Shown: positions 3,971-41,699, counted from the stretch's first letter. The stretch: DNA of 64,000 bases from an uncultured Gemmatimonadales bacterium (GCA_963704805.1 CAVPHS010000001.1:741694-805693); one strand, 5' to 3'. Program-made: numbers and translations. The notes: generated from the sequence alone by a model not told the origin.

Positions 3971-3992
3971 CGCTCAAGAGGGAGCATTCGAG

Positions 3993-5117: not shown

Positions 5118-5153
5118 CGAGGAAGCCGAGCTGAACGAGCTGTAGGAGGAGAC

Positions 5154-6572
5154 TTGCGGGTGTTGTGGCTGATGCTGCTGGCCGTCGCGCCTCGCGCGGC
5201 GGCCACGCAGAGCCCCGTGCCGCCTCCTGCTCCTGTTTCCCCCGCCACGCCGTCGGCGTCACGCGATGTCGCCATCGGTGCGGTGCGGTCCTATCGGGGA
5301 GATCGGACGCTGATCAACGGCTTCGTGCGCGTGCCGCACCTGCTGTTGGATCCGGTGACGATCGGGGCGGGCGGGTTTGCGGAGTTTCGCCTGAATGTCG
5401 GCGTGGTGGATGCGCGAGGCAACGTGCTCGCAACCGACAGCTGGACGCGGCGCGTGCCGTGGACGGCGACACAGGCGCGGGGTGCTGCGAGCGTGGAAAT
5501 GGTGACGTTCACGGTCGATTCCGGCGCCTACGAAATCCGGGCGATCGTGAAAGACTCGGCGTCGGGCCGGCAGTCGACCGCGACGCTGCCCGTGCACGGT
5601 TTCACGGCGCGACCGCCGGCGTCCGACTTGTTGCTGGCATCGGAGATCCGCCGCGCGTCGACCGGAGATACGACCACCGGGCCGGGCGAGCTGCGCAAGG
5701 GTGATCTGTTGATCACCGCCGGGCCGGAAGTGGCGCTGTCGCCGACGCGGGCGACGCTGTTCTACTACTGCGAAGTGTATCGCGACAGCGCCGGTGAGGT
5801 CCCGTGGGCGTTGCGGGTACGCGGCGAGGATGGGAAGGCGATCGTGAGCACGCCGGCGACACGGGCTGCGATCGCCGCGGGCGGCGGGGCGATCACCGGG
5901 TCAGCGGATCTGACGGGATTACCGGAGGGGTCCTACCGGCTCGAGCTCGTGGTCGGCGCCGGAACGGATTCGCTGATACGTTCGGCGCCGTTCCGGATGG
6001 CCGGATTCGCAGTGGAGCAGGAGCTGGCGCAGCAGGCGCAGACGACGGCGAACGCCGGCGACCTGTTCTCGCTGATGACCGAGGCGAAGCTCGACACGCT
6101 GTTCGCGCCGCTGTTTTACCTGGCGACGACGGGTGAGTTGAGCGCGTACCGCGGCCTGTCGCTCGAAGGGAAACGACGGTTTTTGCGGGAGTTCTGGCGC
6201 CAGCGCGATCCCACGCCGGGGACGCCGGAGAATGAGCTCCAGGTCGGGTTCTATCAGCACCTGGCCGAAGCGAACCGGCGGTTCCGGGAGGGTGGGGCTG
6301 CGGAGATTCCGGGATGGCGCACGGATCGGGGACGCATCCTGATTCTGAACGGCGAGCCGGATGAGATCATGCGCCGGCCCTCCAACGGGACGAGCAATCC
6401 GTGGGAGGCCTGGAAATATACCCGGCCCCGGCCGCGCAAGTATGTGTTCTACGATCAGACGCGGCTGGGGAATTATCAGCTGATCTACACGGACGACCGC
6501 AAGGAGAAGGGCATGCCGGGGTGGGAGCGGTTGGTCGGTCAGGATGCAGTGGACGAGATCGCCAGGTTCTAA
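5154..6572 (+). CDS. GWxTD domain-containing secreted protein (472 aa)
   Basis: It has an N-terminal signal-like segment LWLMLLAVAPRAAA. The C-terminal region REGGAAEIPGWRTDRGRILILNGEPDEI..NPWEAWKY..YVFYDQTRLGNYQLIYTDD contains the literal GWxTD motif. The start (TTG 5154 or GTG 5160) is uncertain. Confidence 0.75.
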   Translation: MRVLWLMLLAVAPRAAATQSPVPPPAPVSPATPSASRDVAIGAVRSYRGDRTLINGFVRVPHLLLDPVTIGAGGFAEFRLNVGVVDARGNVLATDSWTRRVPWTATQARGAASVEMVTFTVDSGAYEIRAIVKDSASGRQSTATLPVHGFTARPPASDLLLASEIRRASTGDTTTGPGELRKGDLLITAGPEVALSPTRATLFYYCEVYRDSAGEVPWALRVRGEDGKAIVSTPATRAAIAAGGGAITGSADLTGLPEGSYRLELVVGAGTDSLIRSAPFRMAGFAVEQELAQQAQTTANAGDLFSLMTEAKLDTLFAPLFYLATTGELSAYRGLSLEGKRRFLREFWRQRDPTPGTPENELQVGFYQHLAEANRRFREGGAAEIPGWRTDRGRILILNGEPDEIMRRPSNGTSNPWEAWKYTRPRPRKYVFYDQTRLGNYQLIYTDDRKEKGMPGWERLVGQDAVDEIARF

Positions 6573-10680: not shown

Positions 10681-13600
10681 TCACCAGTTGAGCATGTAGC
10701 GCACGCCGAGCTGCATCCGCCACACGTCGCTCGTCGTGACCGCCTTCTGCAAGCTCTTGGAGATCAGCGGGCCTCCTTGCGACACCGTATTGAGCCGATA
10801 CAGGTTGGCCCCGGTCGCATCGACCCCCTGCGAGGCCAGCGGTCGGTTCGTGATCAGGATCTGCGACACGCCCCAGTTCTTGTTGAGCCAGTTGGTGAAG
10901 TTGAGCATGTCGAGCCGCACCTGGAGGCCGTGCGCCGCGCCGCCGATGTGCCGACTGAGGTCCTGCGACAAGCTCAAGTCTGCGCGGTAGACCATGGGGC
11001 GGAGGATCGCGTTACGTTGGGCGTACTCCCCGCGATGGGCGCGCAGATACGCGTCCTGATTGATGTACGCCTCCCACGATGCCACCTGCTGCGCGACCGT
11101 GTACACAGTCGGGGTGGTGCTCCCGGGCGGCGTCTGCGAATACTGCTGGAAGTTCATTTCGGCGGTGTTGCGCGGGATGTAGAGCAGGTCGTTGGTCGCG
11201 CCATCGCCGTTCATGTCGTTGCTGAAGATGTAACTGTCGGTGCCGGCGCTGCGGCCGTCCCAATACAGGGCGATACTCGACGGTCCGATTTTGAGGAAAT
11301 CACGCGTGTACGTGACGGCCGCGAATACCCGTGGTCCCGGGTTGAACTGCGAATACGCCGCGATCGGGTTGTTCGGATCGTTGGCAATGAAGTTGCCCGT
11401 CCAGGATCCCGATGCGATGGAGCCAGCGTCGACGGTGTTCTTGCTGACCCCGTAACTGTAGCCAACCTTCGCATACAGGCCCTGGGTGAACGAGCGCTCG
11501 AGCGTCGCGGAGATGTTCCACGACGATCCCTTCCCCTGGTTCGTCAGGACCGTTGCGTCGCTGACGTTGCCATAGATCCGATTCGAGGTCCACCGTGGCC
11601 GCCCGTCGGGTCCGAAGAACGCGGACTGCGCCGCCGGCAGGTTTGCGTTGATATACGCCATGCCGTTGACGTCCTTCGAGTACATGTACTCGGCGGTGCC
11701 CACCAGATCCCACGGCAAGCGCTGGTCGATGGCGAGGTTGCTCCGCCACAGCTGCGGGAACATGAAATTCGGATCGGTCAGCGCCAGCTGGAAAGTGGCG
11801 GCGGGTCCTCCCGTAATCAGCGAGTCTGGCGGCTTGTAGGCGTCTGGATTCGGGTTGAAGGGATACGCCGTCGTGTTGTCGGCGGAGATGAAGCCCGTCA
11901 GCACGCCGGTGTTGCCGATCTGGTTCGAGATCCACACGTATGCGGGCCTGCCCGTGAACACTCCGGTTCCACCGCGGATCTGCGTTTGCAGCTTGCCGCC
12001 GACGTTGTAGTTGAACCCGAGGCGTGGGGAGAATAGCACGTTCACGCCCGGCAACGCCCCGCTGTTGTAGTGCACCGGATTACCGTTCTGGTCCCGGAAG
12101 GTCATCGTGTCGGCCACCGGGTTGTCGTACGCCGTGTTCTTGAACTTGGGCGCATCGATCCGGAGCCCGGCGGTCAGCGTCAGGTTGTTCGAGGGCTTCC
12201 AGACATCCTGGACGTACGCGCCCGAGTACAGCACATCCAGCGGCTGCACCGGTTCATCCAACCCGGGGATATTCGAATAGCGGTACTGGAACCGCCGCAG
12301 CGCCACCGGCGAGACCGTCCGATTGGGGTTCGCGAGGAAACTGTCCGCCGCGGCGTAGAAATCGGCCAGTGAATTGAAGACGTACACGCTTTGCGCGCCA
12401 GGGAAGAACACGTTCTTCGAGTGATAGTTCTCCACGCTCACGCCCAGCGTGAGCGAATGTTGCGGCAGGTACACCGTGAAGTTGTCTTGCAGCTGAGAAC
12501 TGTGATAGTACAACTGGTTCTGCGGCGTGAACGGCTCGAAACCGAAGGTGGTGTAGTTGCTCGTCCCCTGGAAGATCTCGACTTCCGGGAACCACGGGCC
12601 TTGCACGTTCTTGCGGCTTTCGTCGCTCTTGTTGTAGCCGACAATCAGATTGTTGGACTTGTTACCGAAGGTCGAGTTCCATTCGCCGACGATCGAGCGA
12701 ATGTTCTCGAGAATCGCGTAGTTCGAATTGGCGAAGTTGAGCGACTGCAAGCTGCTCCGCCGATTACCAAAGCCCAGCGATCCGGAGTTGGAAATCAGCT
12801 GGTCGGAGCTCGAGTTGAGCAGGTTGTAACGGAGATTGAACTTGTTGTGCTCGTTCAGGTTGAAGTCGAGGCGCGCGAGGAACCGCGTCGAGGGGATCCT
12901 GAAGTCATAATTCTGGTAGGGCCCCGTCGCATAGCCGAAGTTGGTCTGCAAGTAGTTGCTGAGCGCGTCGAGATCCGAAGCCAGCACCCGCGTGGTGGTT
13001 CCTTTGACCGAATCAGCTCCGGAGTTCGCGATAAACGTCGTGCCGGGCTGCGTCTGCTTGTCGTCCTCGTAATTGGCGAAGAAGAACAGCTTGTTCTTGA
13101 TGATCGGTCCGCCGAGCGAGACGCCGATGTTCGTGTAGTCGAAGGTGCCGGGGTTGAATGTGTTCGGGCCGGCGTGCGTCCCGACGTAGTCGTTGTTGCG
13201 CGTGTTGTAGAACATCGAGCCGCTGAACTGATTGGCGCCGCCCTTCGTGACCATGTTGATGCCGGCGCCCACGAAGTTGCCCTGCCGCACGTCGTAGGGC
13301 GCGATGGCCACCTGTACCTGTTGCAGCGCGTCGATCGAAACGGGTGTGACACCGGTGCGGTCACCGGGCTGCCCGGCGAGGCCGAACGAGTTATTGAAGT
13401 ACGATCCGTCGATCGTCATGTTGTTCAGGCGGTTGTCCTGTCCGGCGAACGAAAACCCGAACGACATCGGACTGTACTGCGGCGTCAGGCGCAGCAGGTC
13501 CTCGACTCGGCGGCTGATCGTGGGAAGTTTCTGCAGCTGCTCGGTCGAGATGGTCGTCGCGGCGCCCGTGCGCCCCGAGCTGAAGATGTGGTCGGAGCTC

Positions 13601-13983
13601 GCCGTGACCGTGATCGCCTCCAGCTCGACGCTTGCAGGAGTCAAACGAAACCGCAGGTCGCTCGTGACCCCCAGGCCCACGTTGAGGCCGTCCTGGATCT
13701 CCGGCCGGTAGCCGACACGCGACGCGGTGACCTTGTAGGGCCCGCCCACGCGCATGCCCGGGAGCGTAAAGTGCCCATCGCTCCGGCTCGATGCCGAGTA
13801 CGTGGTTCCCGAAGGCTGGTGTACGGCAACCACTCGCACCCCCTCCAGGGGGGCGCCTGCCGAGTCGGTGGCCATTCCGGCAATCGCGCCGGTAGTCACG
13901 CCCTGGGCGCGCACGGCGCCCGAGAAGAACATCGCAAAGACCGCCGCCGCCACGGCGGCGCGGCTGCTAACGATCCAACGCAT
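10681..13983 (-). CDS. TonB-dependent receptor with an N-terminal carboxypeptidase-regulatory-like domain (Oar-like)
   Basis: 1100 aa with a signal peptide ending ..GAVRAQG. The CarboxypepD_reg-like segment is GMATDSAGAPLEGVRVVAVHQPSGTTYSASSRSDGHFTLPGMRVGGPYKVTASRVGY. It has a plug-like region and a C-terminal beta-barrel ending ..LGVRYMLNW. Confidence 0.8.
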   Translation of the reverse strand: MRWIVSSRAAVAAAVFAMFFSGAVRAQGVTTGAIAGMATDSAGAPLEGVRVVAVHQPSGTTYSASSRSDGHFTLPGMRVGGPYKVTASRVGYRPEIQDGLNVGLGVTSDLRFRLTPASVELEAITVTASSDHIFSSGRTGAATTISTEQLQKLPTISRRVEDLLRLTPQYSPMSFGFSFAGQDNRLNNMTIDGSYFNNSFGLAGQPGDRTGVTPVSIDALQQVQVAIAPYDVRQGNFVGAGINMVTKGGANQFSGSMFYNTRNNDYVGTHAGPNTFNPGTFDYTNIGVSLGGPIIKNKLFFFANYEDDKQTQPGTTFIANSGADSVKGTTTRVLASDLDALSNYLQTNFGYATGPYQNYDFRIPSTRFLARLDFNLNEHNKFNLRYNLLNSSSDQLISNSGSLGFGNRRSSLQSLNFANSNYAILENIRSIVGEWNSTFGNKSNNLIVGYNKSDESRKNVQGPWFPEVEIFQGTSNYTTFGFEPFTPQNQLYYHSSQLQDNFTVYLPQHSLTLGVSVENYHSKNVFFPGAQSVYVFNSLADFYAAADSFLANPNRTVSPVALRRFQYRYSNIPGLDEPVQPLDVLYSGAYVQDVWKPSNNLTLTAGLRIDAPKFKNTAYDNPVADTMTFRDQNGNPVHYNSGALPGVNVLFSPRLGFNYNVGGKLQTQIRGGTGVFTGRPAYVWISNQIGNTGVLTGFISADNTTAYPFNPNPDAYKPPDSLITGGPAATFQLALTDPNFMFPQLWRSNLAIDQRLPWDLVGTAEYMYSKDVNGMAYINANLPAAQSAFFGPDGRPRWTSNRIYGNVSDATVLTNQGKGSSWNISATLERSFTQGLYAKVGYSYGVSKNTVDAGSIASGSWTGNFIANDPNNPIAAYSQFNPGPRVFAAVTYTRDFLKIGPSSIALYWDGRSAGTDSYIFSNDMNGDGATNDLLYIPRNTAEMNFQQYSQTPPGSTTPTVYTVAQQVASWEAYINQDAYLRAHRGEYAQRNAILRPMVYRADLSLSQDLSRHIGGAAHGLQVRLDMLNFTNWLNKNWGVSQILITNRPLASQGVDATGANLYRLNTVSQGGPLISKSLQKAVTTSDVWRMQLGVRYMLNW

Positions 13984-14078
13984 GAATTGGACCTCGCTTC
14001 AGAAGGAACGGATGCAGGTTGCGGTTGGCCATCGAGACCGGGAGAAAGTCGCCCGCTCATGGGACCGCGTCAAGGAGA

Positions 14079-14243
14079 CTAGGTGGGTGCTTTACGCAGC
14101 AGATACACGGCCGCGACACCGACGAGAAGATTGGGAGTCCATGCCGCGAGCGCCGGGGGCAGCACGCCTCCGGGGCGGACTGCTTTGGCGAGCTGGAACA
14201 TCAGCAGCACGATGAACGTCGTCGCGACACCCAATGCCGCGCA
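14079..14243 (-). pseudogene. Orphan 3-prime fragment of an lptG-like gene (54 codons + stop, no 5-prime part)
   Basis: Hand translation of the minus strand gives CAALGVATTFIVLLMFQLAKAVRPGGVLPPALAAWTPNLLVGVAAVYLLRKAPT*. The intact LptG C-terminus reads GAAWGVAASLATTFIVLLMFQLAKAVGAGGVLPPALAAWLPNILVGGAAIYLLRRAPT*. An in-frame stop (tta on the plus strand at 14244-14246) bounds it upstream. Confidence 0.7.
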
Positions 14244-16159
14244 TTAGGTAACTACGCTCCGAAGATCTAGTGCTAAGAAATGAACTCCTCAATCCCTTGA
14301 GCGGTGGCATAGCTCAAACGCAATAGTATTGATTCCGTGTGTTAAAGAACTAGACCCACACGGAGAGGGGTTCTATATGCATCGCCGTCTTAGTTGTCTG
14401 GTTTTCCTTATTGCAATTGGAGCTGTAACTGGTTGCTCGATTGACCAAGCAAGCGCCCCTTCCTCACGACCAATTGACCAGACGACACAAGTCTCCCCGG
14501 TCGATCTCGTCAGCGTCCCACGATTTCATTTAGCGTTTGAAGCAATCGGAACCTTCAAACCTGGCGACGAAATTGTTTTGCAGGGCTCCGTAACGGCTGA
14601 CCTTTCAACCGCGGATATGGAAGTCCAGGTAATACTTCCGGAAGTCGAGGGATTTGCAAAGGCCGCATCCGGCAGGCTCCCCCTAATGATCTCGCTTGCC
14701 CCCTTGGTTCACGCGCGTTCGGCGCTCGCGAAAGGTCAGAATTATGCGTTCAGGAAATCACTGACCATAGCAGAGCCCGGTACCTATCGAGTCGCTCTAA
14801 GCGCTCGGAAACGCTCAAAGGAGCCCGTTGTAATAGGCGGCAGATGGGTGGAAGATGTCGCGTACTTGGAAGGTCGGATCATAGTAGATTATCAGCAAGG
14901 TCGATTCATTCTTCCAACAGATCCTGCAACACCACCGAGCGCTGCGCTTTCGCTGCCCGGACCTCGCCGACTGCAATCAGCAGGGTTTCGCAAGGCAGCT
15001 CCGAGAGTCCAGCCAACTGGCCCGGTACAAGGATGCGACGTGTACCACGTCACGTTCTGGAATCCTGACGCGAACGGTGGAGCGGGCGCGTTCGAAGTGA
15101 TGTCGGGTACTTGGGCGAATGTCAACATTACTGACGATCAGACTGGTCAGATCGTGAACAACTACGGTATGAGCATCGGTGAAGATGGTGAGTTCGCGGT
15201 GTGCACTTGGGCGGGGGTGGGATACAACGGCAGCATCAAGCTGATGGATCAGGGTGGCAACTCGGTCACACCTGACGGTGCTTTCTTTGCTGGCGGTAAC
15301 ACCCAGGACTACTGGGGCTACTATGAAATGGTCAGCGGCACAAATCAATCACTGCTATTCAAGAACATGGAAGCGACCATCCCAGAGTCACAGGCGCTTC
15401 TGGGTTATAGCAGGCCAATAATCTACGTCAACATGATGTCGAACATCAACAATTCATACTACTCCGAGGGTTCTGACGCCATTTTCATCAAGACGTCCCA
15501 CACACTACACGAGTTTGGAATATTCACGTTTGCCCACGAATATGGACATGCGGTCCATGACAAGGCATTGGGTGGAATCGCAGCGTACGGTGCATGCCCC
15601 GACAGTCATTACGTTGACGGCGCGTATAATCTGGGTTGCGCATGGAAGGAAGGTTTTGCCGATTTTCACGCTGCGTACACCCGCCGCGAGGTATTGACAA
15701 GTGGAGGCTTCGCAGACCACGAATTTGAATCCAATCAATTTTACCAGGGGGGAGATGGTTCGATTATCGAAGGCTCAGTGGCCGCTTTCCTGTACGACCT
15801 AGTAGACGGCCCCAATGATCCTGACGGACCCACGAACCAACCTGATGGTGACGACGACGCGGTGCAGTATCCAGGGAGTTACTTGGGAACGCTCATGCGT
15901 ACCTGCTTGATAACGCAGTTTGGCGGTGTGATTCGTGGTGAGAACGGAATTGACGACCTGATCTACTGTCTAGAGCGGCAGGTTGATCCAGCTGTGAAAA
16001 ACTCGTCAATCTACTTCGTTACAAGACCGGCAAATCTTGAAGCTGTGGGTGAGAGTGAGAGCGCGACCGAACCTACGAACTGGAGCCAGAGCGCAATACG
16101 CGCGCTGTGGACTCACAACCTGTACGGTCAATAGGGTCAAAACTTCACTACGCTTGTAG
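14244..16159. other. Low-GC islet (about 1.9 kb) inserted between two diverged copies of the lptG 3-prime end
   Basis: Hand counts: the line starting 14281 has 28/60 G+C and the line starting 15361 has 31/60. The flanking line starting 14101 has 41/60. The islet carries a single gene, and no integrase or transposase was seen. Confidence 0.55.
14377..16134 (+). CDS. Lipoprotein zinc metallopeptidase (gluzincin-like HExxH...E), atypical base composition
   Basis: ATG 14377 is preceded by ggagagggg. The lipoprotein signal is MHRRLSCLVFLIAIGAVTGC. The motif is FAHEYGHAVHD (HExxH), with a candidate third ligand in AWKEGFADFHA 33 residues downstream. The peptidase family is not assignable without a search. 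Confidence 0.6.
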   Translation: MHRRLSCLVFLIAIGAVTGCSIDQASAPSSRPIDQTTQVSPVDLVSVPRFHLAFEAIGTFKPGDEIVLQGSVTADLSTADMEVQVILPEVEGFAKAASGRLPLMISLAPLVHARSALAKGQNYAFRKSLTIAEPGTYRVALSARKRSKEPVVIGGRWVEDVAYLEGRIIVDYQQGRFILPTDPATPPSAALSLPGPRRLQSAGFRKAAPRVQPTGPVQGCDVYHVTFWNPDANGGAGAFEVMSGTWANVNITDDQTGQIVNNYGMSIGEDGEFAVCTWAGVGYNGSIKLMDQGGNSVTPDGAFFAGGNTQDYWGYYEMVSGTNQSLLFKNMEATIPESQALLGYSRPIIYVNMMSNINNSYYSEGSDAIFIKTSHTLHEFGIFTFAHEYGHAVHDKALGGIAAYGACPDSHYVDGAYNLGCAWKEGFADFHAAYTRREVLTSGGFADHEFESNQFYQGGDGSIIEGSVAAFLYDLVDGPNDPDGPTNQPDGDDDAVQYPGSYLGTLMRTCLITQFGGVIRGENGIDDLIYCLERQVDPAVKNSSIYFVTRPANLEAVGESESATEPTNWSQSAIRALWTHNLYGQ

Positions 16160-17302
16160 CTACGTCGGTGCTCTTCGTAGCAGGTAGATCGCCGCTCCAC
16201 CGACCAGGATGTTGGGCAGCCACGCCGCGAGCGCCGGGGGCAGCACGCCGCCGGCGCCGACCGCTTTGGCGAGCTGAAACATCAGCAGCACGATGAACGT
16301 CGTCGCGAGACTCGCGGCCACGCCCCATGCCGCGCCGCTCTTGGGCGAGGAAATCGCGAGCGGCGCCCCGAACAGGGCGATCAGTAAGCAGATAAAAGGA
16401 ATGGCGATCTTGAGCGACAGCTCCACCTGCAGCTTCTTGGCGTTCGAGCCGCTGCGCGTCAGCGCGTCGATGTAGCGCCGCAGCTCGGAGTAGCGCATCT
16501 CGTCCGGCGCCTTCGGTTGCGCCAGCAGGTCAGCCGGGCTCTCGCGCAGCGTGCGGGACTGCAGCGAATCGAACTCGAACGCGTACTCCCCCACAGGATC
16601 GGTCCCCTCGAGGTAGCGCAGCGTGCCGCGCAGCAACGTCCAGTAGGCGGGCCGTGTGCTCTTTTTCCTGCTGCTGTCGCTGTACAGCGCGCTCTGGGCG
16701 GCGAGCACGATGGTGGGATAGTCGAGGCCCGAGCCTTCACGCTCGAGCATCAAGTCCACCATCTGGCGGGAGCGCAAATCGAGGTTGCGAATCGCGTACA
16801 CCCAGCCGCCATCCGCACGGTACACGAAGTTGTCGCGCGTCGGCAGTGACTGCACCGCCTTCTCACCCAATAACTCGAGCCGCTTCGACGTGGTCCACGG
16901 CGCGATCTCGCCGAGCAGCAGGCCCATCAAAAAAGAAACGGCGCCGGCCAGGAACAACGGCCGGACCAGGCGATGGAACGAGATCCCCGACGCCTTGGCG
17001 GCGGTGAGCTCGGAATTGCGGCCCAGCGTCCCCACCGTGAAGACGGTGCCGAACAACACGGCGACTGGCAGTACCAGAAACATTTTTTCGGGCAAATCGA
17101 ACACGTACGACACCGCGACCGTCATCGGCTTGAGGCCCCGGCTCAGGTACGTATCCATCTTGTCCGTCAGATCGATCACGATCACCAGGATGGGGAACCC
17201 CAGCAGCGTGATCAGGAACACACGCAGCCATTCGCGCAGCAGGTAGCGGTCGAGCGTACGGAAGGCGGAAGTCGGAACGCGGAACGCGGAACGCAATGAC
17301 AT
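16160..17302 (-). CDS. lptG: LPS export ABC permease, LptF/LptG (YjgP/YjgQ) family
   Basis: 380 aa. The N-terminus LDRYLLREWLRVFLITLLGFPILVIVIDL is typical of the family. It has 6 TM segments with a periplasmic insert and is adjacent to a paralog. Confidence 0.7.
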   Translation of the reverse strand: MSLRSAFRVPTSAFRTLDRYLLREWLRVFLITLLGFPILVIVIDLTDKMDTYLSRGLKPMTVAVSYVFDLPEKMFLVLPVAVLFGTVFTVGTLGRNSELTAAKASGISFHRLVRPLFLAGAVSFLMGLLLGEIAPWTTSKRLELLGEKAVQSLPTRDNFVYRADGGWVYAIRNLDLRSRQMVDLMLEREGSGLDYPTIVLAAQSALYSDSSRKKSTRPAYWTLLRGTLRYLEGTDPVGEYAFEFDSLQSRTLRESPADLLAQPKAPDEMRYSELRRYIDALTRSGSNAKKLQVELSLKIAIPFICLLIALFGAPLAISSPKSGAAWGVAASLATTFIVLLMFQLAKAVGAGGVLPPALAAWLPNILVGGAAIYLLRRAPT

Positions 17303-17342
17303 GGTCAGCCCCCTGTTCCGCGTTCCGCGTTCCGACTTCCGC
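17265..17342. repeat. Perfect 28-bp inverted repeat (22-nt spacer) spanning the lptF stop / lptG start junction
   Basis: The left arm GCGGAAGTCGGAACGCGGAACGCGGAAC (17265-17292) is the exact reverse complement of the right arm GTTCCGCGTTCCGCGTTCCGACTTCCGC (17315-17342). The arms contain GGAACGC heptamer repeats. The spacer holds the lptG start (17300-17302), the lptF stop (17305-17307) and an AGGGGG SD on the minus strand. Confidence 0.95.
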
Positions 17343-18825
17343 TTTCACGAAAGCTCGTGGTCCATCCCAGCAACGCCCGCTTCATGTCCTGCCAGTCACC
17401 GCCGTGCGCGCTGCCGCCCGCCCGCCCCACCGTCCACAGCAGGGGAATCGAGACGAGCAGGAAAATGAGATTGGGCATCCACATGGCAAAGAAGGGCGGC
17501 ACGATCAAGCGGTCGCCGAATTCCTCGCCCCCGATCAGGCCCACGTAGTAGACCGAGAAGACCGCCAGGCTCGTGCCGATCACGAGGCCCACGCCGCCGC
17601 GCGGGAAGCGGATCGCCAGCGGCACACCGAGCAGCGCGAAAATGACGCACGCCGCCGAGATCGCCAGCTTCTTCTGGATCTCGACTTCGTAGATCGCGGC
17701 GCGCTGACGGGCGCCGCGCAGACGCTGATCGTACGCCGTCATGGCCGCTTGCTGGGCCACATAGGGGACCACGGTGGCGGGTCGCTGCGGCGGTTTGCGT
17801 ACGCCCTGCGCCTGCGCGGGCGTGGGCGTGACCAGCCGCGCAATCGCGCCGAGGGCCCGGCAGTAGAGCGTCGCCGGGGGCGGTGCCGTGTCGGCGGCGG
17901 ACGCAGGTGGCGGTGTGAGCGGTGCCAGTTTGATGAGCCGCCGCAGCTCCCCCCTGACCGCCATCAGCCCGTCGCGCTGCACCCGCTCCATGTCCTTGCG
18001 CGCGCGCGCGACGACTTCGTCCATCGCGCAGATCGTCATCTCGCGGTCGCCGCGGTAGTCGTCCCCCTCGGTCTGGGTGAACGTATTGCTCACACCGGCG
18101 ACCTTGATGCGGTTGACGGTATAGAATGTCCGGTTGAAGTGTTGTGGATCGCTGCGCTTGATTTCATGGACCTCGCCGTCGCGCAGCGTGAGGTACAAAT
18201 CGGTACCGCCGGGGGTATAGGCCATACGACCCGAGTCGGCCATGATGATGCGGCGCCGGTCAGGGTCCTGTAGATCGTAAATCGTCACGTCACTCATCGT
18301 GTTCGCAGCTGGATCGATGCGGGCGGCGCGCAGGAAGAACTGCCTCGTCACGACCTCATTGATCACCTGTTCCTTCAACTGGAATGTCGGCTTCTTGCGC
18401 TGGATGTCGACGAGGAGCGTCCGCAGCTCGTGATTCGACCGCGGCAGGACCTGGTCGTTCCAGACGAAGGCGATCAGGCCGACCAGCGTCGCGCCGCCGA
18501 CGACCGGCCGGAGCAGCCGGCCGACGCTGATACCGCTGGCTTTCATCGCGGTGATCTCGTTGTCGGCGGCCAGGTGGCTGAACGTGTAGAGCACCGCGAC
18601 GAGCACCGCCATCGGCAGCGTCATCGCGACGATGAACGGAATCGAGAGCGCGAACACCTCGAAAACGACGCCCCACGGCAGTCCCTTGCCCACAAAATTG
18701 CCGAACTGCTTCGCGATCTGATTGACGAGCATCGCGAAGGTGAGCGCCGCGAGCGCGTATCCGAGTGGAGGAACGTGCTGCCGCAGGATGTAACGGCTGA
18801 GGATGCGCACGATGGGTCGCGCCAT
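17305..18825 (-). CDS. lptF: LPS export ABC permease, LptF/LptG family (long form with an enlarged periplasmic insert)
   Basis: 506 aa. The N-terminus ILSRYILRQHVPPLGYALAALTFAMLVNQ is typical, and there are C-terminal TM helices. It lies 2 nt upstream of lptG. Confidence 0.7.
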   Translation of the reverse strand: MARPIVRILSRYILRQHVPPLGYALAALTFAMLVNQIAKQFGNFVGKGLPWGVVFEVFALSIPFIVAMTLPMAVLVAVLYTFSHLAADNEITAMKASGISVGRLLRPVVGGATLVGLIAFVWNDQVLPRSNHELRTLLVDIQRKKPTFQLKEQVINEVVTRQFFLRAARIDPAANTMSDVTIYDLQDPDRRRIIMADSGRMAYTPGGTDLYLTLRDGEVHEIKRSDPQHFNRTFYTVNRIKVAGVSNTFTQTEGDDYRGDREMTICAMDEVVARARKDMERVQRDGLMAVRGELRRLIKLAPLTPPPASAADTAPPPATLYCRALGAIARLVTPTPAQAQGVRKPPQRPATVVPYVAQQAAMTAYDQRLRGARQRAAIYEVEIQKKLAISAACVIFALLGVPLAIRFPRGGVGLVIGTSLAVFSVYYVGLIGGEEFGDRLIVPPFFAMWMPNLIFLLVSIPLLWTVGRAGGSAHGGDWQDMKRALLGWTTSFRESGSRNAERGTGG

Positions 18826-18855
18826 TATATTCGGAACCCCAAGTCTCTACAAGGG

Positions 18856-21800
18856 ATGCGTCGTCTCGCCACGCTAGCGCTACTCGGTTTCACGCTCGGC
18901 GTACCCCAGGTACATGCGCAGGCTCCTGTGTACACGTTTGGCGTGCCGCCGCTCGCTCCGCCACGGAATCCGGCACTCGAGCCAGGCGGACGACTCGGCG
19001 CACGCGTGCCGCCCGCACTCGTCGCCGCGGCGTGGATCGATGCCGTACTGGCACGCCGGCGTCCCTGGTTCACTGTGCCCGCGACGCTCGCCGAAGCGCC
19101 TCCGCCGCCCTCCGCCGCCCCATCGCCGCCCCCCGCCGCCGGCCTCTTAGGCCCCTATGCCGACATCGGCATGCAGCTCAACCTTCGCTTCGAGCTGAAG
19201 GCCGATCAGTTCCGCAACCTGCGATGCACCGCCGCCGATCGCCAGGTGGCACTGTCCGGGTGCCAGAGCGGCTTCCCGACCATCACGCCCAATCCGTTGT
19301 ATTCCTTGCGCACGAGCGGCGTCGTCGCGCAGCGGCTCCACGTGGACGTCGACTTCGACAGCCAGCGCGAATTCGACGCCAACAACAACCTCCGGTTGTG
19401 GTACGAAGGACTGGAAGACGAGATCCTGCGGCGCGTCGAAGCCGGCAACGTCACGTTCCAGATGCCGTCGTCGCGCTTCATCAGCGCCGCCATTCCCGCG
19501 AACAACTTCGGTGTGCAGGCGATCGCCCAGGTCGGACCGATCGAGTTTCGCGGCATCTTTGCCCAGCAGAAGGGCAACATGGTGACGGACCGTATCTACC
19601 ACGTGGGGGAGACGACGAGCCAGCCGATCGACCGCGACGCCCGCGACCTCGACTTCGAGCCGGGCCGGTTCTTCTTTGTGATCGATCCCGCGGCGCTGCC
19701 GGGGTATCCGGCCGTCGATATTTTGTCGCTCGACCAGACGGTGCGGCCCGACTCGCTCACGGTCGCCGCGCTGCGCGTCTACCGGCGCCGCTCGGTCGCG
19801 CCCGGATCCACCGGCAATCAGAACGCGGGCGGCGTCCGCGCAGTCGCGTGCGCCCCGGGTCCACAGGGTCAGGCGATCGACTGCAGCGGGCAGCGCGCCG
19901 GACCCTTCGAGTGGGAGATCCTCGAGGAGCGCAAAGACTACTACGTCGATCCGTCGGGGACCTGGTTCGCCCTCGCGAACCGGCTCGATCAGAACGACAA
20001 CCTCGCGGTCTCGTATATCACCGCCAGCCGGGCGGACTCGATCGGCACGTTTCCCATCGAGGTGAACGCCGACACCTCCGTGGTCGATACGCTGCGGTTG
20101 ATCTACGATCCCAATCCCGGCCTGACAGCGGCTGCGCCGTCGTTTCGCTTCGAGATCCGCAACGCGTATCGCGTCGGCGGCCGCGAGGTGAACCGCGAGT
20201 CGCTGGCGCTCGCCTTGATGGTCAACCAGCGCGAGCGCTCGCCCGCCGGCCAGCCGTACCTCAGCGTGCTCGGCGTCGCGCTCGAGACCGACCCGAATCA
20301 GTTCGATCAGTACAACCGGCTGTTTCCACGCTCGCGCGATCCCAGTCAAGGCGATCCGGTGCGCGATCTGTTCGTCATTTTCCCCCACCTCACGCCGTTC
20401 GCCGATGCCACGAAACTCTCGGCCAGCGAGCGCAACGATTCGCTGTATCGCACACCGCGCGTCTACCTCACCACGCAGGCGCCCCCGTCGGTGTTCGCCC
20501 TGCGATTGCACCTCGAGGCGGCGGCCTCGGATGACCGGTCGGTGCTGTCGCTCAACAGCTTCCAGATCCGCGAGGGCAGCGAGCGGATCTACGTGGGTAA
20601 CGCCCTGCTGGTGCGCGACGTCGACTACTCCATCGACTACACCACGGGGCAGGTGCAATTCACGCACGCCGATTCGCTGTTTCCCGCCGGCAGGGCCGAC
20701 GTGCGCGCCCAGTTCGAGGAGCGGGCCGCGTTCAGCCTCGCCCCGACGTCGATCTATGGGCTGGCCGCCCGCTACGACCTCGGCGCGGTGGGACAGGTCA
20801 ACTTTACCGGCCTGTTTCAGAACGAGCAGAGCTCGTTCAACCGCCCGCCGCTGGGCTTCGAGCCGTCGTCCAGCTTCATCGGCGGCCTTTCCACCCAATT
20901 GCATTTTCAGCCGGCGTGGCTGACGCGCTTCGCCGATCTCCTTCCGGGCGTCCGCACCGACGCCCTCTCGTCCCTCGCGATCTCGGGCGAGGTCGCGATG
21001 TCGAAACCGAGTCCCAACCGGTTTGGCCAGGCGTACATCGAGGAGTTTGAATCAGGGGCGGCGCGGTTTATTAGCCTGGCCGAGAACGCCTGGCATTGGG
21101 GCAGTATCCCCTCGTCGACCCGCGGCGCCGAACCGTCTGGGATCGTGGCGAGCTTCGATCCCACCCAGGCCGGGTTCCTGACGTGGCAGAGCCTACCGTA
21201 CAACAACAACAACGGCACGCTGCAGCCGATTCAGTTCTTTCCGCAGCAGATCGATCCGACCATCCGTCTCGCCGGCCAGACGACCGCCGCCGAGCCGGTG
21301 CTCTGGCTCATGCTCAAGCCGGATACGGTGCTGGGGCTCGCGAACAACACGCCGAGCTCGCCGAGCTTCGGCGTGCCGAACTGGGTCCAGCCGCCGACCA
21401 ACGCGCCGCGCTGGCGCTCGATCACGCAGACGCTCTCGCCGACCGGCGTCGACCTGTCCCGGACGGAGTTTCTGGAGTTCTGGGTGTGGGAGAACGGCTC
21501 GCGCGTCGCCAAGCAGAACCGCACGGTCGTCATGTTCGACTTCGGGTCTGTGTTCGAGGATGCCCTCGCGTTCGTACCCACTTCGTTCACTGTCAGCCCG
21601 ACCGGCGATACGACCTACACTGGTATTCGCCAAACCGGCGTGGGACGGCTCGACAGCGAGCGCGACCCGCGCACGCAGACCTGGAGCGCCACGATCAACG
21701 ACGAGGGCATCCTCTCGGACCGCGTCGTGGACGGCATCAACGACGCGACGCACGCAACCACGATCGACACGCTGCCGTTGTGCAGCCTGACCGAGGATGG

Positions 21801-24800
21801 CCAGCTCATTCCGTTCGTGTTCGGCGACGTACGGTCGCGCTGCGGCCGGCACAACGGCGTGGCCGACACGGAGGATCAAGACGGCGACTTTGCGCTCGAT
21901 TCGGCGAGCGGAGTGAAGACGGCCGAGAACTTCGTACGGTACGTCTTCCTGATCGGCGACGACCGCTTTTACGTGCGCGACGGCGGCATGTTGCCCGATC
22001 CCGCCGGCGGGACAGCGGGATGGCGCCTGTATCGCATCCCCTTCCGTACCGACTCACTGCAGATCGGCACCCCCAACCTCCGTCAGGTTCAAGCGCTGCG
22101 CATCACCGTCATCACTCCGGCGACGGGCATTCCAGGTCCCGCGCCGCAGGTGTACTTCGCGCTGTCGCGCGTGCGACTCATCGGGAGCAGCTGGGTCAAG
22201 CGGAGCGATACGCCGATCAAGGGCATCGCCGGCCAGCGCGGCACCGGCAGCGGCGAGGTCGTGGCCTCGATCGTGAGCACCGAGAACACCGATCTCGGCT
22301 ACACGCCTCCTCCCGGCGTCGTCGATCAGGCGGGGCGCCGCGACGCGTCCTTCCAGCTCGGGGCCGTCCAAATCAACGAGCGCTCGATGCGGGTGCTGGC
22401 GCGCGGTCTGGGCCAAGGCGAGCGCGCGGAAACGTATCTGCGCTTCACGACCGAGGGCGACAAGAATTTTCTCAAGTACCGGTCGCTGCGCGCCTGGGCG
22501 CGAGGCCGAGGACCGGGGTGGGAAGACGGAGACCTCGAGTTCTTCATCAAAGCGGGGAAAGACCAGGACAACTTCTATCTGTATCACGCACCGGCGCGGA
22601 CGATCTCTTGGGAGCCCGAGGTGCACGTGGACTTCGATCGCTGGCTGGCGCTGCGCGCCCGGATCGAACAGGCGTGGCTCTCGGGGGATACGCCGCAGGT
22701 CTACGCCGGCTGTCCCGATACCACGCTCGTCCCGTTCGATACCGCGTACGTCATGTGCGATGGGCCGTACATCGCGCATGTGAAAGACCCCGGCACGGCC
22801 CCTCCCAATCTTGCGGGCGTCCAGGAAATCGCCGCCGGCATCTTTCGCGTGAACAGCAACGTGTTCATCGACCAGGCGGAGCTCTGGGTTGACGACATTC
22901 GGTTGGACGATGTCGTGCAGGAAACCGGTATGGCGGGCGCGCTGGATGTCTCACTCACGGCGGCCGACGTCGCCGACGTTGCGGTGAGCGTGTCGCGACG
23001 CGACGGACAGTTCAGGCAATTAGGCCAGGACCCCAGTTACCTCACCGACAACGCCGCGAACATCGCCGGGACCGTGCGATTCGACCGGTTCCTGCCGCAA
23101 ACCTGGGGCGTGTCGATTCCAATCACCCTCAGCCATACCATCGCGGCGAGCGATCCGTTCTATCTGACGAATACGGACATTCGCGCGGACGCCTTGCCGG
23201 GCCTGCGCCGCCCACACGCCACCAGCTCGACCTACACGTTCTCCGCACGAAGAATTCGCCGTTCGAGGCGCCTCCTGGGTCGCTGGCTGGTCGACCCGCT
23301 CTCGCTCAGCGGCGCATTCAACACCGGCGGCTCGCGATCCGAGCTCGCGCAAGCCTCCGGCACGAGCTACGGCTTCAACCTCGACTACACGTTGCTGCCC
23401 GGCGCGCGCACCGTGCGCATCGCCGGCGCGAATCTGCGGATCAATCCGTCGGCCGTGACAGTCCGGTCCGGACTCGCGGGGAGTGACGCCGAGCGGTTTA
23501 CGTTTACCGTGCCAATCCCGCGCGGCGACGACACGTTGCCGCCCTCGCTGTCCAAAACGCGGCTGTGGCGCAACTCGGCACGGGTGGACCTGCTCCCCCT
23601 GACCGGTCTGCAGTTCAACGTCGAGGCGGCATCCACGCGCGACCTGCGCGACTACGGCGATTCGACCACGATGGGACGGCTGCTGCGTCAGGAGCGGGAG
23701 ACATTCCTGGGGATGGACGTTGGCGTCGAGACGCAACGGTCGCTGACCAGCGGTCTCAGCCTGACGCCGCGCATTGCCGCGTGGATACGGCCCCGCTTGT
23801 CGGCGATCTCGGGCTTCAACTTCTCCCGCGATCCCAACGCCCGGCAGCCCATCCGTACGACCGGCGACAGCGCGGGAGAGTTCCGCGTCCCCGCGGCGTT
23901 CAGCAACACGCGGCGAGTCGACCTGGGAGCCCAGCTCGACATCGGCCGGCTGGCCAAGGCGATCTTTGGCGACTCCTCAGGCGTCGGCATCTGGCTTACC
24001 CGGATCGCCCCGGTCGATGTCTCCTACGGCCGCCAGCGGGGCTCGAGCTATAACCTCGCGACCGATCTGCCGGGGCTCGGCTACCGGCTCGGCTGGGGCG
24101 GTTTGGAGGATTTTCAGAGCGTCAACGGACAGCTCGCCACGTCGGCGGTGCAGAACTCGGTGCTCACGGCTGGTGGCGGGGTGAGTCCGGGCCTCGGCCT
24201 GCGCGTGACGGCGACGTACCGCCAGACGAACAACGTCGCCTGGACGCTGCGCGCGGATGAGCAGGTGCCGCTCCGCTCGAGCATTCGAGACTGGCCCAAT
24301 GGGCAGATCGCCTGGACGGTGACGCCGTCGAAGCAGAGCATCGGTCGGATCATTCCGCGTATTCTCGCCCAGGTGTCGTACCGCAAGTCGCAGACGGCCA
24401 ACGAGCAGCCCACTTTCCAGGACGGGAGCAGCGTGATCACGCGCACGATCGACGAGGCGTTGAATCCTTCGGTGTCGCTGTCGCTGCCCGCCGGAATCCT
24501 GGTGACCACCGACTGGGCGCGCAGCAACGGCGATCGCCTCGCGGCCGGAAGCCTGTTCCATACGGAGCGCAACTCGCAGAATACCTCGCTGACGTTTTCG
24601 TTCCGGCCTCCCGGTGGCTCGAGCCGCTGGCGCAACGTCATCCGGACGACCGGAGGGTACAACGTGACGGCCAATACGACCTGCCTGCGGGGTGCGGGGC
24701 AGAGCGCCTGCGTGCCGTATGTAGACAGCCGTCAGGCGCAGGCGCAGCTTACCATGGACACCGATCTCCCCTCCAACATGAGCGCGGGGCTGCAAATGGC

Positions 24801-24900
24801 CTACGTACTGAACGAAGAGCGGCAGACGAACCGGAAGATCTCGCAGTTCGTGATTACGGCATTCGTCCAGTTGTCGGCGAGTGTGGGGCAACTGAAATGA
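18856..24900 (+). CDS. sprA: Very large (about 2014 aa) outer-membrane protein, SprA-like (candidate T9SS translocon)
   Basis: The start was moved to ATG 18856 (MRRLATLALLGFTLGVPQVHAQ signal peptide). The segment EAGNVTFQMPSSRFISAAIPANNFGVQAIAQVGPIEFRGIFAQQKGN resembles, from memory, the conserved SprA-family N-terminal block. Size, beta-rich composition, and nearby CTD cargo and PorV-like genes support the call. No HMM was run. Confidence 0.5.
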   Translation: MRRLATLALLGFTLGVPQVHAQAPVYTFGVPPLAPPRNPALEPGGRLGARVPPALVAAAWIDAVLARRRPWFTVPATLAEAPPPPSAAPSPPPAAGLLGPYADIGMQLNLRFELKADQFRNLRCTAADRQVALSGCQSGFPTITPNPLYSLRTSGVVAQRLHVDVDFDSQREFDANNNLRLWYEGLEDEILRRVEAGNVTFQMPSSRFISAAIPANNFGVQAIAQVGPIEFRGIFAQQKGNMVTDRIYHVGETTSQPIDRDARDLDFEPGRFFFVIDPAALPGYPAVDILSLDQTVRPDSLTVAALRVYRRRSVAPGSTGNQNAGGVRAVACAPGPQGQAIDCSGQRAGPFEWEILEERKDYYVDPSGTWFALANRLDQNDNLAVSYITASRADSIGTFPIEVNADTSVVDTLRLIYDPNPGLTAAAPSFRFEIRNAYRVGGREVNRESLALALMVNQRERSPAGQPYLSVLGVALETDPNQFDQYNRLFPRSRDPSQGDPVRDLFVIFPHLTPFADATKLSASERNDSLYRTPRVYLTTQAPPSVFALRLHLEAAASDDRSVLSLNSFQIREGSERIYVGNALLVRDVDYSIDYTTGQVQFTHADSLFPAGRADVRAQFEERAAFSLAPTSIYGLAARYDLGAVGQVNFTGLFQNEQSSFNRPPLGFEPSSSFIGGLSTQLHFQPAWLTRFADLLPGVRTDALSSLAISGEVAMSKPSPNRFGQAYIEEFESGAARFISLAENAWHWGSIPSSTRGAEPSGIVASFDPTQAGFLTWQSLPYNNNNGTLQPIQFFPQQIDPTIRLAGQTTAAEPVLWLMLKPDTVLGLANNTPSSPSFGVPNWVQPPTNAPRWRSITQTLSPTGVDLSRTEFLEFWVWENGSRVAKQNRTVVMFDFGSVFEDALAFVPTSFTVSPTGDTTYTGIRQTGVGRLDSERDPRTQTWSATINDEGILSDRVVDGINDATHATTIDTLPLCSLTEDGQLIPFVFGDVRSRCGRHNGVADTEDQDGDFALDSASGVKTAENFVRYVFLIGDDRFYVRDGGMLPDPAGGTAGWRLYRIPFRTDSLQIGTPNLRQVQALRITVITPATGIPGPAPQVYFALSRVRLIGSSWVKRSDTPIKGIAGQRGTGSGEVVASIVSTENTDLGYTPPPGVVDQAGRRDASFQLGAVQINERSMRVLARGLGQGERAETYLRFTTEGDKNFLKYRSLRAWARGRGPGWEDGDLEFFIKAGKDQDNFYLYHAPARTISWEPEVHVDFDRWLALRARIEQAWLSGDTPQVYAGCPDTTLVPFDTAYVMCDGPYIAHVKDPGTAPPNLAGVQEIAAGIFRVNSNVFIDQAELWVDDIRLDDVVQETGMAGALDVSLTAADVADVAVSVSRRDGQFRQLGQDPSYLTDNAANIAGTVRFDRFLPQTWGVSIPITLSHTIAASDPFYLTNTDIRADALPGLRRPHATSSTYTFSARRIRRSRRLLGRWLVDPLSLSGAFNTGGSRSELAQASGTSYGFNLDYTLLPGARTVRIAGANLRINPSAVTVRSGLAGSDAERFTFTVPIPRGDDTLPPSLSKTRLWRNSARVDLLPLTGLQFNVEAASTRDLRDYGDSTTMGRLLRQERETFLGMDVGVETQRSLTSGLSLTPRIAAWIRPRLSAISGFNFSRDPNARQPIRTTGDSAGEFRVPAAFSNTRRVDLGAQLDIGRLAKAIFGDSSGVGIWLTRIAPVDVSYGRQRGSSYNLATDLPGLGYRLGWGGLEDFQSVNGQLATSAVQNSVLTAGGGVSPGLGLRVTATYRQTNNVAWTLRADEQVPLRSSIRDWPNGQIAWTVTPSKQSIGRIIPRILAQVSYRKSQTANEQPTFQDGSSVITRTIDEALNPSVSLSLPAGILVTTDWARSNGDRLAAGSLFHTERNSQNTSLTFSFRPPGGSSRWRNVIRTTGGYNVTANTTCLRGAGQSACVPYVDSRQAQAQLTMDTDLPSNMSAGLQMAYVLNEERQTNRKISQFVITAFVQLSASVGQLK

Positions 24901-41203: not shown

Positions 41204-41572
41204 ATGAACCGCAAGGGCTTTACACTGATCGAACTTCTGATCGTCGTCGTGATCATTGGTATTTTGGCCGCGATTGCGATTCCGAAGTTCGCGAACACGA
41301 AGGAGAAGGCGTATCTGGCGTCAATGAAGTCGGACCTGCGGAACCTGATCACAGCCGAAGAGGCGTATTTCGCCGACTCGGTGAAGTACACGACCAACCT
41401 CGGCACGGCGTATAACGTGACCAGCGGTGTTGTCGGCCCCACCATTGCGGTGACGGCTGACGGGTTCACGGCGACGGTGTCGCACACCACGACCACGAAG
41501 ACGTGCGCGGTGTACGTTGGTTCGACGCCGCTTGCCCCGGCCAACAAGGAAGGCGAGCCGAAGTGCGCATAA
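41204..41572 (+). CDS. pilA: Type IVa major pilin (copy 1)
   Basis: MNRKG/FTLIELLIVVVIIGILAAIAIP is the class III signal with Glu at mature position 5. It has a C-terminal Cys pair (KTC..EPKC). SD gggagg lies upstream. Confidence 0.85.
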   Translation: MNRKGFTLIELLIVVVIIGILAAIAIPKFANTKEKAYLASMKSDLRNLITAEEAYFADSVKYTTNLGTAYNVTSGVVGPTIAVTADGFTATVSHTTTTKTCAVYVGSTPLAPANKEGEPKCA

Positions 41573-41595
41573 GGCCTATGGCCTAAGACACGAAG

Positions 41596-41628
41596 AGCGG
41601 CGGGGGACACAAATCCCCGCCGCTTTTT
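41596..41628 (+). terminator. Rho-independent terminator after pilin copy 1
   Basis: AGCGGCGGGGGA..TCCCCGCCGCT stem (one bulged G), followed by TTTTT. Confidence 0.7.
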
Positions 41629-41699
41629 GTGTGACCAAACGTTTCATGCCCGAGTCCTAGCGAAGCGCCTGTGTCTGTGTCCCGTAAATGGAGGTCGCA

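Follow-up and report, generated by a model that had tools for sequence, protein, structure and literature searches.

RESULTS

Architecture of the lptG locus

The subject of this study is a small single-gene insert at the 3′ end of lptG, the gene for the lipopolysaccharide (LPS) export permease, in a 64,000-nt stretch of DNA from a soil Gemmatimonadales bacterium. This whole stretch is referred to as the window; its nearest LptG relatives are Gemmatimonadales metagenome-assembled genomes (MAGs), with protein identities of no more than 86%. The working lptG occupies 16160 to 17302 on the minus strand. Its native body (16250 to 17302, minus strand; Pfam LptF_LptG, E = 2.6e-72) encodes a protein 86% identical to that of loci L001 to L003, and directly upstream of the gene is lptF (17305 to 18825, minus strand; LptF_LptG, E = 3.9e-84), which lies outside the element. 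The native downstream neighbor of lptG is a TonB-dependent receptor gene (10681 to 13983, minus strand), recognized by Pfam matches to CarboxypepD_reg and an outer membrane protein (OMP) beta-barrel. Next to this receptor gene lies native lptG-tonB intergenic DNA (13984 to 14078, minus strand), which is still joined to an lptG end. This lptG end is not that of the working gene; it is an orphan copy of the terminus (14079 to 14243, minus strand), and the insert lies between the two copies.

The orphan forms a direct repeat with the working lptG end. Ungapped, the repeat spans 14079 to 14242 and 16160 to 16323, with the two starts 2,081 bp apart and a nucleotide identity of 82%; once a 12-nt (4-codon) gap is allowed, it reaches 14243 and 16336, respectively. 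An earlier note made from the DNA alone had described the orphan as a copy of the last 54 LptG codons with about 84% amino acid identity, in the same orientation as the intact end, and sharing exact blocks with it. In line with this, 45 of 54 residues (83%) were identical in a gapped protein alignment, both copies lie on the minus strand, and the longest identical stretches between them measured 29 and 26 nt. The orphan on its own passes the Pfam gathering threshold for LptF_LptG (E = 9e-8; profile positions 305 to 353 of 353). The 26-nt block, GCCGCGAGCGCCGGGGGCAGCACGCC, has just two copies in the window, at 14143 to 14168 and 16224 to 16249, with none expected from shuffled sequences. The two junctions (14099 to 14271 and 16096 to 16258) were each covered without a single mismatch by contigs from X1, an independent metagenome run on soil.

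The 26-nt block divides each copy of the repeat into two parts. On the receptor side, the segment from 14079 to 14142 (minus strand), which holds the last 20 codons and a stop codon at 14079 to 14081, is the native part of the orphan, the displaced original lptG terminus. It is followed by the first copy of the block, the putative crossover region of the tonB-side (attR-like) junction, and by a part that is apparently element derived (14169 to 14243, minus strand), the 5′ portion of an lptG-end mimic with the 12-nt gap relative to lptG. On the other side, a surrogate terminus that probably came with the element (16160 to 16223, minus strand), again consisting of the last 20 codons and a stop codon (16160 to 16162), completes the working lptG. 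The second copy of the block, the candidate crossover region of the lptG-side (attL-like) junction, separates this surrogate terminus from the native lptG body.

Between the repeat copies, a noncoding cassette leader (14244 to 14376, plus strand) carries a strong Shine-Dalgarno sequence, GGAGAGGGG, located 7 nt upstream of the ATG at 14377. The cargo gene itself is an open reading frame (ORF) of the plus strand (14377 to 16134) for a 585-amino-acid (aa) predicted lipoprotein zinc peptidase, and a 25-nt spacer (16135 to 16159) separates its stop codon from the convergent stop codon of lptG. The spacer appears to be element derived and has no counterpart in relatives with an empty site. The insert had been described beforehand as one gene with a lipobox, an HEYGH motif, and a downstream WKEGFAD motif, and AVTGC, HEYGH, and CAWKEGFADFHA were indeed all found within 14377 to 16134.

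Composition of the insert

A sliding profile confirmed the low G+C content between the repeat copies that hand counts had indicated. The G+C content of 14244 to 16159 is 52.8%, compared with a window mean of 64.8% (z = −4.6), making it the lowest 1.9-kb stretch in the window. At third codon positions, the G+C content (GC3) of the cargo gene is 0.555, compared with 0.82 ± 0.04 (minimum, 0.74) in the 41 other gene-like ORFs of the window. The note had named G+C content and codon usage within the genomic range as an observation that would speak against acquisition, and both were instead found to lie far outside the range of the window.

The two lptG ends are reciprocal chimeras

Both repeat copies were compared with the lptG ends of 45 relatives, with each alignment split at the 26-nt block and read in lptG orientation. 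Over the 63 nt 5′ of the block, the intact copy was nearer than the orphan to all 45 relatives (identity of 0.75 to 0.97 versus 0.70 to 0.86). Over the 61 nt 3′ of the block, the relationship was reversed: the orphan was nearer to most of the close relatives (0.84 to 0.93 versus 0.59 to 0.77 for the intact copy). The ratio of sites at which the intact copy is native-like to those at which the orphan is native-like was 15:0 on the 5′ side of the block and 3:16 on the 3′ side (Fisher P value, 4.5e-7). The native 3′ segment of the orphan (14079 to 14142) was 90 to 92% identical to L001 and L002 and 74% identical to L003 and L050. Furthermore, alignments of four relatives (L001, L002, L004, and L006) stay with lptG as far as about 16218, resume at about 14136, and run from there through native intergenic DNA into the receptor gene. 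By these alignments, the repeat copies are reciprocal chimeras in which the switch between native and foreign DNA falls in or beside the 26-nt block. The reciprocal split around one block points to a single crossover in which the resident lptG end recombined with a mimic that was carried, together with the protease gene, by a circle of about 2,081 bp. These results directly support the surrogate-end model that had been suggested for the locus, in that the working lptG ends in 20 foreign codons, whereas the final 20 codons of the orphan and the intergenic DNA downstream of it are native.

The differences between the two copies are distributed over the first, second, and third codon positions as 9, 5, and 17, respectively, and this bias to the third position indicates that the mimic diverged as coding lptG sequence. 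The 5′ part of the orphan differs from the intact copy by 14%, in addition to the 12-nt gap. The frame, the length, and the stop codon of the working lptG are all kept with its surrogate end.

The site is empty in most relatives

The empty-site survey was based on one genome per species and covered about 50 Gemmatimonadota loci with an LptG orthologue. In about 45 Gemmatimonadales relatives, the lptG stop codon is followed by about 75 to 165 bp and then by a TonB-dependent receptor gene, wherever the contig continues. The receptor gene is orthologous or paralogous and co-directional or convergent. Neither a protease gene nor a second lptG end was found at lptG in any of the empty-site relatives, which include the closest ones available (L001 to L003, LptG identity of 86%; L004 and L005, TonB receptor identity of 83%). 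As the lptG-receptor junction is empty in the sampled relatives, the window carries an insertion relative to each of them. The native intergenic DNA of the window (13984 to 14078) could be aligned to that of four empty-site loci (L001, L002, L004, and L006) and also to that of three occupied ones (L090, L080, and L128; see below). Two further observations had been named in advance as arguing against acquisition, namely, the presence of the same gene at this place in all relatives with vertical phylogeny and membership of 14079 to 14243 in a longer conserved gene. Neither was made, since about 45 species representatives lack the protease gene, the divergence of protease and host is discordant, and no relative has such a longer gene.

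In one MAG of the survey, SMAG_U4502, a contig (L050) opens at 2 to 217 with the last 72 lptG codons, 94% identical to those of the window, followed by a TonB receptor. The same MAG also has a complete but different lptG on L033, and the lptG end of L050 could be an orphan or bin contamination.

Related cassettes recur at the same site

Homologous proteases, 26 to 60% identical to that of the window, are convergent on the lptG stop codon in at least seven further metagenomic loci, or eight when the window is included. The inserts at these eight loci are single-gene inserts of about 1.9 to 2.8 kb. The most similar protease (60%) is that of L128, where there is no orphan and the junction lies exactly at the lptG stop codon. 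L078/L079 (52%) has no significant orphan; a candidate orphan lptG end in L078 was dropped, its local alignment score being no better than that of shuffled sequence. In L082 (41%), the far end of the insert lies beyond the contig. In contrast to L128 and L078, the lptG end is repeated over 42 nt at 83% identity in L080 (31%) and over 156 nt at 81% identity in L090 (26%), where the copies are 2,775 bp apart and the orphan is frameshifted. Repeat lengths across the loci thus vary among 165, 156, 42, and 0 nt. In L129 (about 49%), the protease gene (3525 to 5349) is split by a frameshift, and in L133 (about 51%), the gene (3789 to 5233) lacks residues at approximately 308 to 413, including HExxH. 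Judging from the broken genes of L129 and L133, cassettes evidently decay in some hosts.

Each occupied locus is nested among empty relatives; for example, L078 shares 97.5% and 96.4% LptG identity with the empty-site loci L033 and L036, respectively, and the LptG of L080 is 90% identical to that of the empty L049. The divergence of the proteases does not follow that of their hosts: for the window and L090, the proteases are 26% identical versus 77% for the host TonB receptors, and for the window and L078, the values are 52% for the proteases versus 74% for LptG. GC3 is 0.55 to 0.73 in all cassettes versus 0.75 to 0.90 in host genes. The orphans of L090, L080, and the window are alike in that each ends in native sequence that runs on into native intergenic DNA, and the element-derived lptG termini of the three loci are dissimilar to one another.

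The insert of L090 contains additional DNA. Directly upstream of the protease gene is a frameshifted fragment of about 300 nt (5510 to 5801) that corresponds to the last approximately 100 codons of a TonB receptor gene up to its stop codon (E = 5e-24), and this fragment is of the convergent receptor type found in L078 and L133. The gene order in L078, L129, and L133 is receptor (plus strand), protease (plus strand), and lptG (minus strand). Taken together, the fragment and this gene order indicate that the L090 insert is an excerpt of a donor locus, cut within the receptor gene and within lptG.

More distant family members (about 30% identity) have unrelated gene contexts. One of these, P0027 (L131/L132), is flanked by a 53-nt, 87% direct repeat (L086, 5499 to 5550 and 8553 to 8605) and adjoins an S8 peptidase gene and an IS3-family transposase gene (rve).

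A separate observation concerns contig ends. Five contigs stop within the 3′-terminal part of lptG, three of them (L128, L129, and L133) 84 to 120 nt from the stop codon and two (L034 and L035) 14 to 26 codons before the end. Such breaks, which lie near the crossover region, would be expected in samples where occupied and empty haplotypes, or repeated lptG ends, are present together.

The cargo is a predicted exported zinc peptidase

The N terminus of the cargo protein reads MHRRLSCLVFLIAIGAVTG|C, with a lipobox (AVTG|C) that was judged by eye; lipoboxes are likewise present in the homologues of L078 (GASC) and L090 (AVAC). The gene call of the source genome, P0001, has an internal methionine start and comprises 364 aa, so that both the signal peptide and the N-terminal domains are absent from it. 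The full 585 aa are favored because the homologue P0002 covers 100% of this length and because the N-terminal domains were modeled confidently. The AlphaFold2 model had a predicted local distance difference test score of 86 over the full length, and the C-terminal domain modeled alone reached 93.7. The model shows beta-sandwich regions at about residues 45 to 180 and 220 to 320, followed by a cysteine-rich catalytic C-terminal domain. A Foldseek search with the full-length model was swamped by the beta-sandwich domains, and the C-terminal domain was therefore remodeled alone. Its top match was thermolysin (probability of 1.0; template modeling [TM] score of 0.47 to 0.50; E of about 6e-3), and the next matches were M9 (clostridial collagenase peptidase domains) and M1 aminopeptidases.

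Residues H387, E388, H391, and E425 (the last within EGFAD) are nearly invariant among 51 homologues, as are several cysteines. In the model, the first three lie within a helix at 378 to 397, and E425, the candidate third zinc ligand, lies within a helix at 419 to 435. Searches of the protease against Pfam, NCBIfam, PDB sequences, PADLOC, and PHROGs, profile searches included, returned nothing beyond weak matches local to HExxH. Gluzincins, MEROPS clan MA(E), include families M4, M9, and M1. The cargo protease resembles thermolysin-like gluzincins in its HExxH helix and the conserved glutamate of the downstream EGFAD, but it differs from them in having no sequence match to a Pfam, NCBIfam, or PDB family, in its TM score of just 0.47 to 0.50, and in its architecture of a lipobox, two beta-sandwich regions, and a cysteine-rich catalytic domain. 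On the basis of the model and the conserved residues, we predict that the cargo is an exported, membrane-anchored zinc endopeptidase.

The protease family is large and unnamed and has no Pfam model; a full hidden Markov model search retrieved 580 clusters (at 50% identity) at E ≤ 1e-30 and 3,975 at E ≤ 1e-3. A metatranscriptome contig lies within the cargo gene, at 15785 to 15948. The gene may well be accessory, and the frequent decay seen in L129 and L133 fits such a status.

Searches for mobility machinery

The earlier note had stated that no integrase remains at the locus. This was borne out on both sides of the insert, as no integrase or recombinase domain was detected among the tested neighbors, which cover 89 to 28475 of the window and comprise GWxTD-domain proteins, CtaA, an amino acid permease, the TonB receptor, lptG, lptF, an SprA-like protein, an M28 peptidase, and a type II secretion system/type IV pilus ATPase. 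Likewise, none of the eight lptG-linked loci contained a recombinase or a second gene. There was no tRNA in the window, no Rfam match in the islet, no terminal inverted repeat at its boundaries, and no promoter or terminator consensus above chance within it, and the noncoding leader had no significant secondary structure (z = −1.45) that would indicate a hairpin. Viral contigs of IMG/VR contained neither a protease relative nor either of the conserved lptG-end motifs, and a plasmid collection gave a single weak Streptomyces match to the protease. No larger element at lptG was found in the approximately 45 relatives or in the seven other occupied loci, the search for integrative and conjugative elements (ICEs) being not exhaustive. 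A distant member of the protease family, P0020 (30% identity; GCA_034680565.1; L136, 4903 to 5982), has as a neighbor, at a distance of about 1 kb, a gene that weakly matches Phage_integrase, next to the rpsF-rpsR-rplI operon. Neither att-like flanking repeats nor a tRNA was found around this integrase-like gene in the 9.6 kb of the contig.

DISCUSSION

Origin of the insert

Foreign composition, empty sites in relatives, reciprocal chimerism of the lptG ends, and recurrence at the same site are each established here. We consider it probable that the insert is a foreign cassette that entered by a Campbell-type crossover and that it is one of a recurrent, recombinase-free family. The incoming unit would have been a circle of 2,081 bp made up of an lptG 3′-end mimic of about 165 to 177 nt and one lipoprotein zinc peptidase gene; this circular intermediate is something we infer. 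One reciprocal exchange of the Campbell type, located within or beside the 26-nt block and involving the mimic and the resident end of lptG, would leave lptG ending in 20 element codons and would displace the original terminus, with its native intergenic DNA, to a position beside the TonB receptor gene. The lptG end carried by the cassette may be a piece of an earlier host's gene that serves as a portable homology arm for host homologous recombination, and the donor excerpt in L090 favors this origin from a previous host. If homology were limited to lptG, a circularized fragment would integrate by a single crossover and leave a direct repeat; if both flanks matched, a double crossover would give a clean insertion with no repeat. 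That the crossover apparently took place at one of the two longest identical stretches suits homologous recombination, although a site-specific core would also be compatible. Provided that the insert is such a cassette, host recombination and a recombinase supplied in trans appear about equally likely.

Several observations weigh against this interpretation. No donor of the foreign 3′ lptG segment was found among the sampled lptG ends, the best identity being 77%. The chimeric pattern is symmetrical, so that an ancestral insert lost through its repeats would give the same pattern, and only distribution and composition would oppose that history. No excision, circle, or empty-site joints were seen in reads at a coverage of about 1 to 5×. 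Relative to lptG, the 5′ boundaries of the mimics in the window and L090 are no more than about 12 nt apart, which suits a dedicated site-specific element with a defined attP better than excerpts taken at random from chromosomes. Finally, the receptor gene of L128 is co-directional, as in the window, and yet the orphan is absent, which the single-crossover rule does not predict.

It is also possible, although we hold this with less confidence and would not expect it, that integrase-free cassettes cycle among Gemmatimonadota, being excised by host recombination as circles of about 2 kb and re-integrated in Campbell fashion, with the mimic refreshed at each cycle. Were cassettes to cycle in this way, the mimic would have kept its near-constant 5′ boundary as a relic of a single founding excerpt comprising a TonB receptor, a protease, and lptG.

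Alternative explanations

The earlier note had proposed either an acquired cassette or the decayed remnant of an island. Of these, horizontal acquisition of a cassette is supported, and the remnant is less likely, given that there is no other island gene and that L090 carries a donor excerpt. In its fullest form, the remnant explanation supposes that a larger ICE, an integrative and mobilizable element (IME), or a prophage inserted at the lptG 3′ end by means of its own tyrosine integrase, with an attP that brought the surrogate end, and then decayed by deletions to something like a cis-mobilizable element (CIME) with one cargo gene and the two att sites, or that the cassette is a satellite using such an integrase in trans. 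We regard this as unlikely, even though the architecture corresponds to the published definition of CIMEs (cargo alone between att repeats at a gene 3′ end, without genes for recombination or transfer), the 5′ boundary of the mimic is similar in the window and L090 despite 26% identity between the proteases, and P0020 lies 1 kb from a weakly matching tyrosine recombinase gene. Against it, all eight lptG-linked loci lack an integrase or other island gene and have single-gene inserts, the approximately 45 relatives have no larger lptG element, and IMG/VR has neither the protease nor the lptG-end motifs. In addition, the repeat lengths vary widely (165, 156, 42, and 0 nt), the L090 insert includes part of a TonB receptor gene from a donor chromosome and no island DNA, and the integrase-like gene of L136 has no att-like repeats around it. 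Vertical inheritance would instead place the protease gene and an old duplication of the lptG end in an ancestor, with most lineages having lost the cassette by recombination between the repeats. Such deletion yields the same chimeric relation as insertion, and cassettes do decay, as seen in the frameshift of L129, the loss of HExxH in L133, and the frameshifted orphan of L090. But this history needs many independent losses over about 45 lineages against eight scattered retentions, and the native segment of the orphan shows no excess decay (90 to 92% identity to L001 and L002). Because protease and host divergence are discordant, every cassette has a GC3 deficit (0.12 to 0.35), occupied loci are nested among empty ones, and the lptG termini that the elements supplied to the window, L090, and L080 are too dissimilar to stem from one ancestral surrogate, we consider descent with many losses very unlikely.

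A purely local origin could take the form of a tandem duplication of the lptG end combined with an unrelated insertion or of homology-facilitated illegitimate recombination that copied recipient DNA, and it would agree with the same orientation of the copies and with the absence of mobility genes. A local duplicate should decay evenly, whereas the differences observed here are split reciprocally (P value, 4.5e-7) and are biased to third codon positions; moreover, the 3′ part of the orphan is not over-diverged, and its 5′ part is 14% different with a 12-nt gap. The illegitimate recombination variant was rejected, as the 5′ part of the orphan is foreign and not a copy of recipient DNA, and a local origin in any form seems highly improbable to us. 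More improbable still is an assembly artifact in the form of a chimeric contig of two strains or organisms. The region is evidently hard to assemble, with related contigs (L034, L035, L128, L129, and L133) breaking in the lptG end, but error-free X1 contigs span both junctions, and the same architecture is found in L090 and L080, which come from other samples.

Relation to known systems

"Classical" CIMEs measure 1.2 to 13 kb and have att repeats at the 3′ end of a gene with cargo only between them (PMC7563491, PMC6323972). CIMEs arise by deletion from an ICE or IME of the same att site and can be mobilized in cis once an incoming ICE or IME has accreted to them. The lptG cassette shares several features with streptococcal CIMEs such as those that occupy the fda, rpsI, and rpmG 3′ ends: it is small, lies where a housekeeping gene ends, contains cargo only, and has direct, att-like repeats (165 nt, 82%) on either side; it also has no integrase or transfer genes and falls within the size range of CIMEs. 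In contrast to CIMEs, no parent ICE or IME of the same specificity is known or was found for it, and its repeats are long (165 nt), diverged (82%), and coding derived, unlike the short identical core of CIMEs. One member of the lptG-cassette family is, moreover, an excerpt of a donor chromosome, and the family involves a new phylum and, in lptG, a new target gene.

Among integrative islands and prophages, some integrate in classical Campbell fashion, by means of tyrosine integrases, at the 3′ terminus of a tRNA or protein gene, for which they bring a surrogate end. As in these elements, lptG appears to have been rebuilt by the terminus of the element, with its original end displaced by a reciprocal crossover within the shared segment. 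The cassette differs in having no integrase, excisionase, or other island genes, in a total size of 2.08 kb, and in a homology that runs about 75 nt (about 87 nt on the lptG side, with the gap) upstream of the crossover, which is not needed for restoration of the gene.

The minimal mobile elements of Neisseria, as mentioned in PMC3787668 and PMC1797815, are gene cassettes that homologous recombination exchanges at sites bounded by conserved genes. The lptG loci share with them the use of one site with conserved flanks that is empty or occupied by differing protease alleles, the absence of mobility genes, and, in L128 and L078, clean insertions without repeats. They differ in the duplicated flanks of the window, L090, and L080 and in chimerism of a kind that a double crossover does not produce, and natural transformation is not documented here for the cassette hosts. 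Unlike integron gene cassettes, the insert has no attC-type hairpin (leader z = −1.45), boundary inverted repeat, or integrase. Among the papers searched, none linked lptG to an integration site or genomic island.

The lptG cassette represents a sequence-resolved case of a single accessory gene that has been spliced into the tail of an essential gene, apparently without harm to lptG, in a little-studied soil phylum with almost no described mobile elements. Recurrent hits by divergent, recombinase-free cassettes raise the question of how much gene transfer in uncultured bacteria makes use of host recombination and borrowed gene ends. If the cassettes do cycle as outlined above, they would be a distinct class of minimal mobile DNA with a segment of a host gene as its sole "mobility function." The accessory, patchy, and often decaying distribution of the protease family suggests a role in niche adaptation or antagonism. 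Nothing established is overturned by the lptG cassette.

Other features of the window

Beyond lptF, an ORF at 18430 to 24900, of up to 2,156 aa from the first start, matches SprA_N (type IX secretion translocon) and is divergent from lptF. Its first approximately 400 bp overlap lptF on the opposite strand, and it is followed by an M28 peptidase gene at 24897 to 25817. The second-lowest-G+C stretch of the window (about 54 to 58%; 41204 to 42772) corresponds to three tandem, near-identical genes for pilin-like proteins of 122 to 126 aa (41204 to 41572, 41688 to 42068, and 42404 to 42772) with a common prepilin-type N terminus, FTLIELLIVVVIIGILAAIAIPKF. Exactly at the lptF stop and lptG start, a near-perfect palindrome (17259 to 17346) has 32-nt arms that are 97% complementary and 22 nt apart. 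It is made up of GGAACGC heptad repeats, and this motif has five overlapping matches in the entire window, compared with 0.1 expected, all of which lie inside the palindrome.

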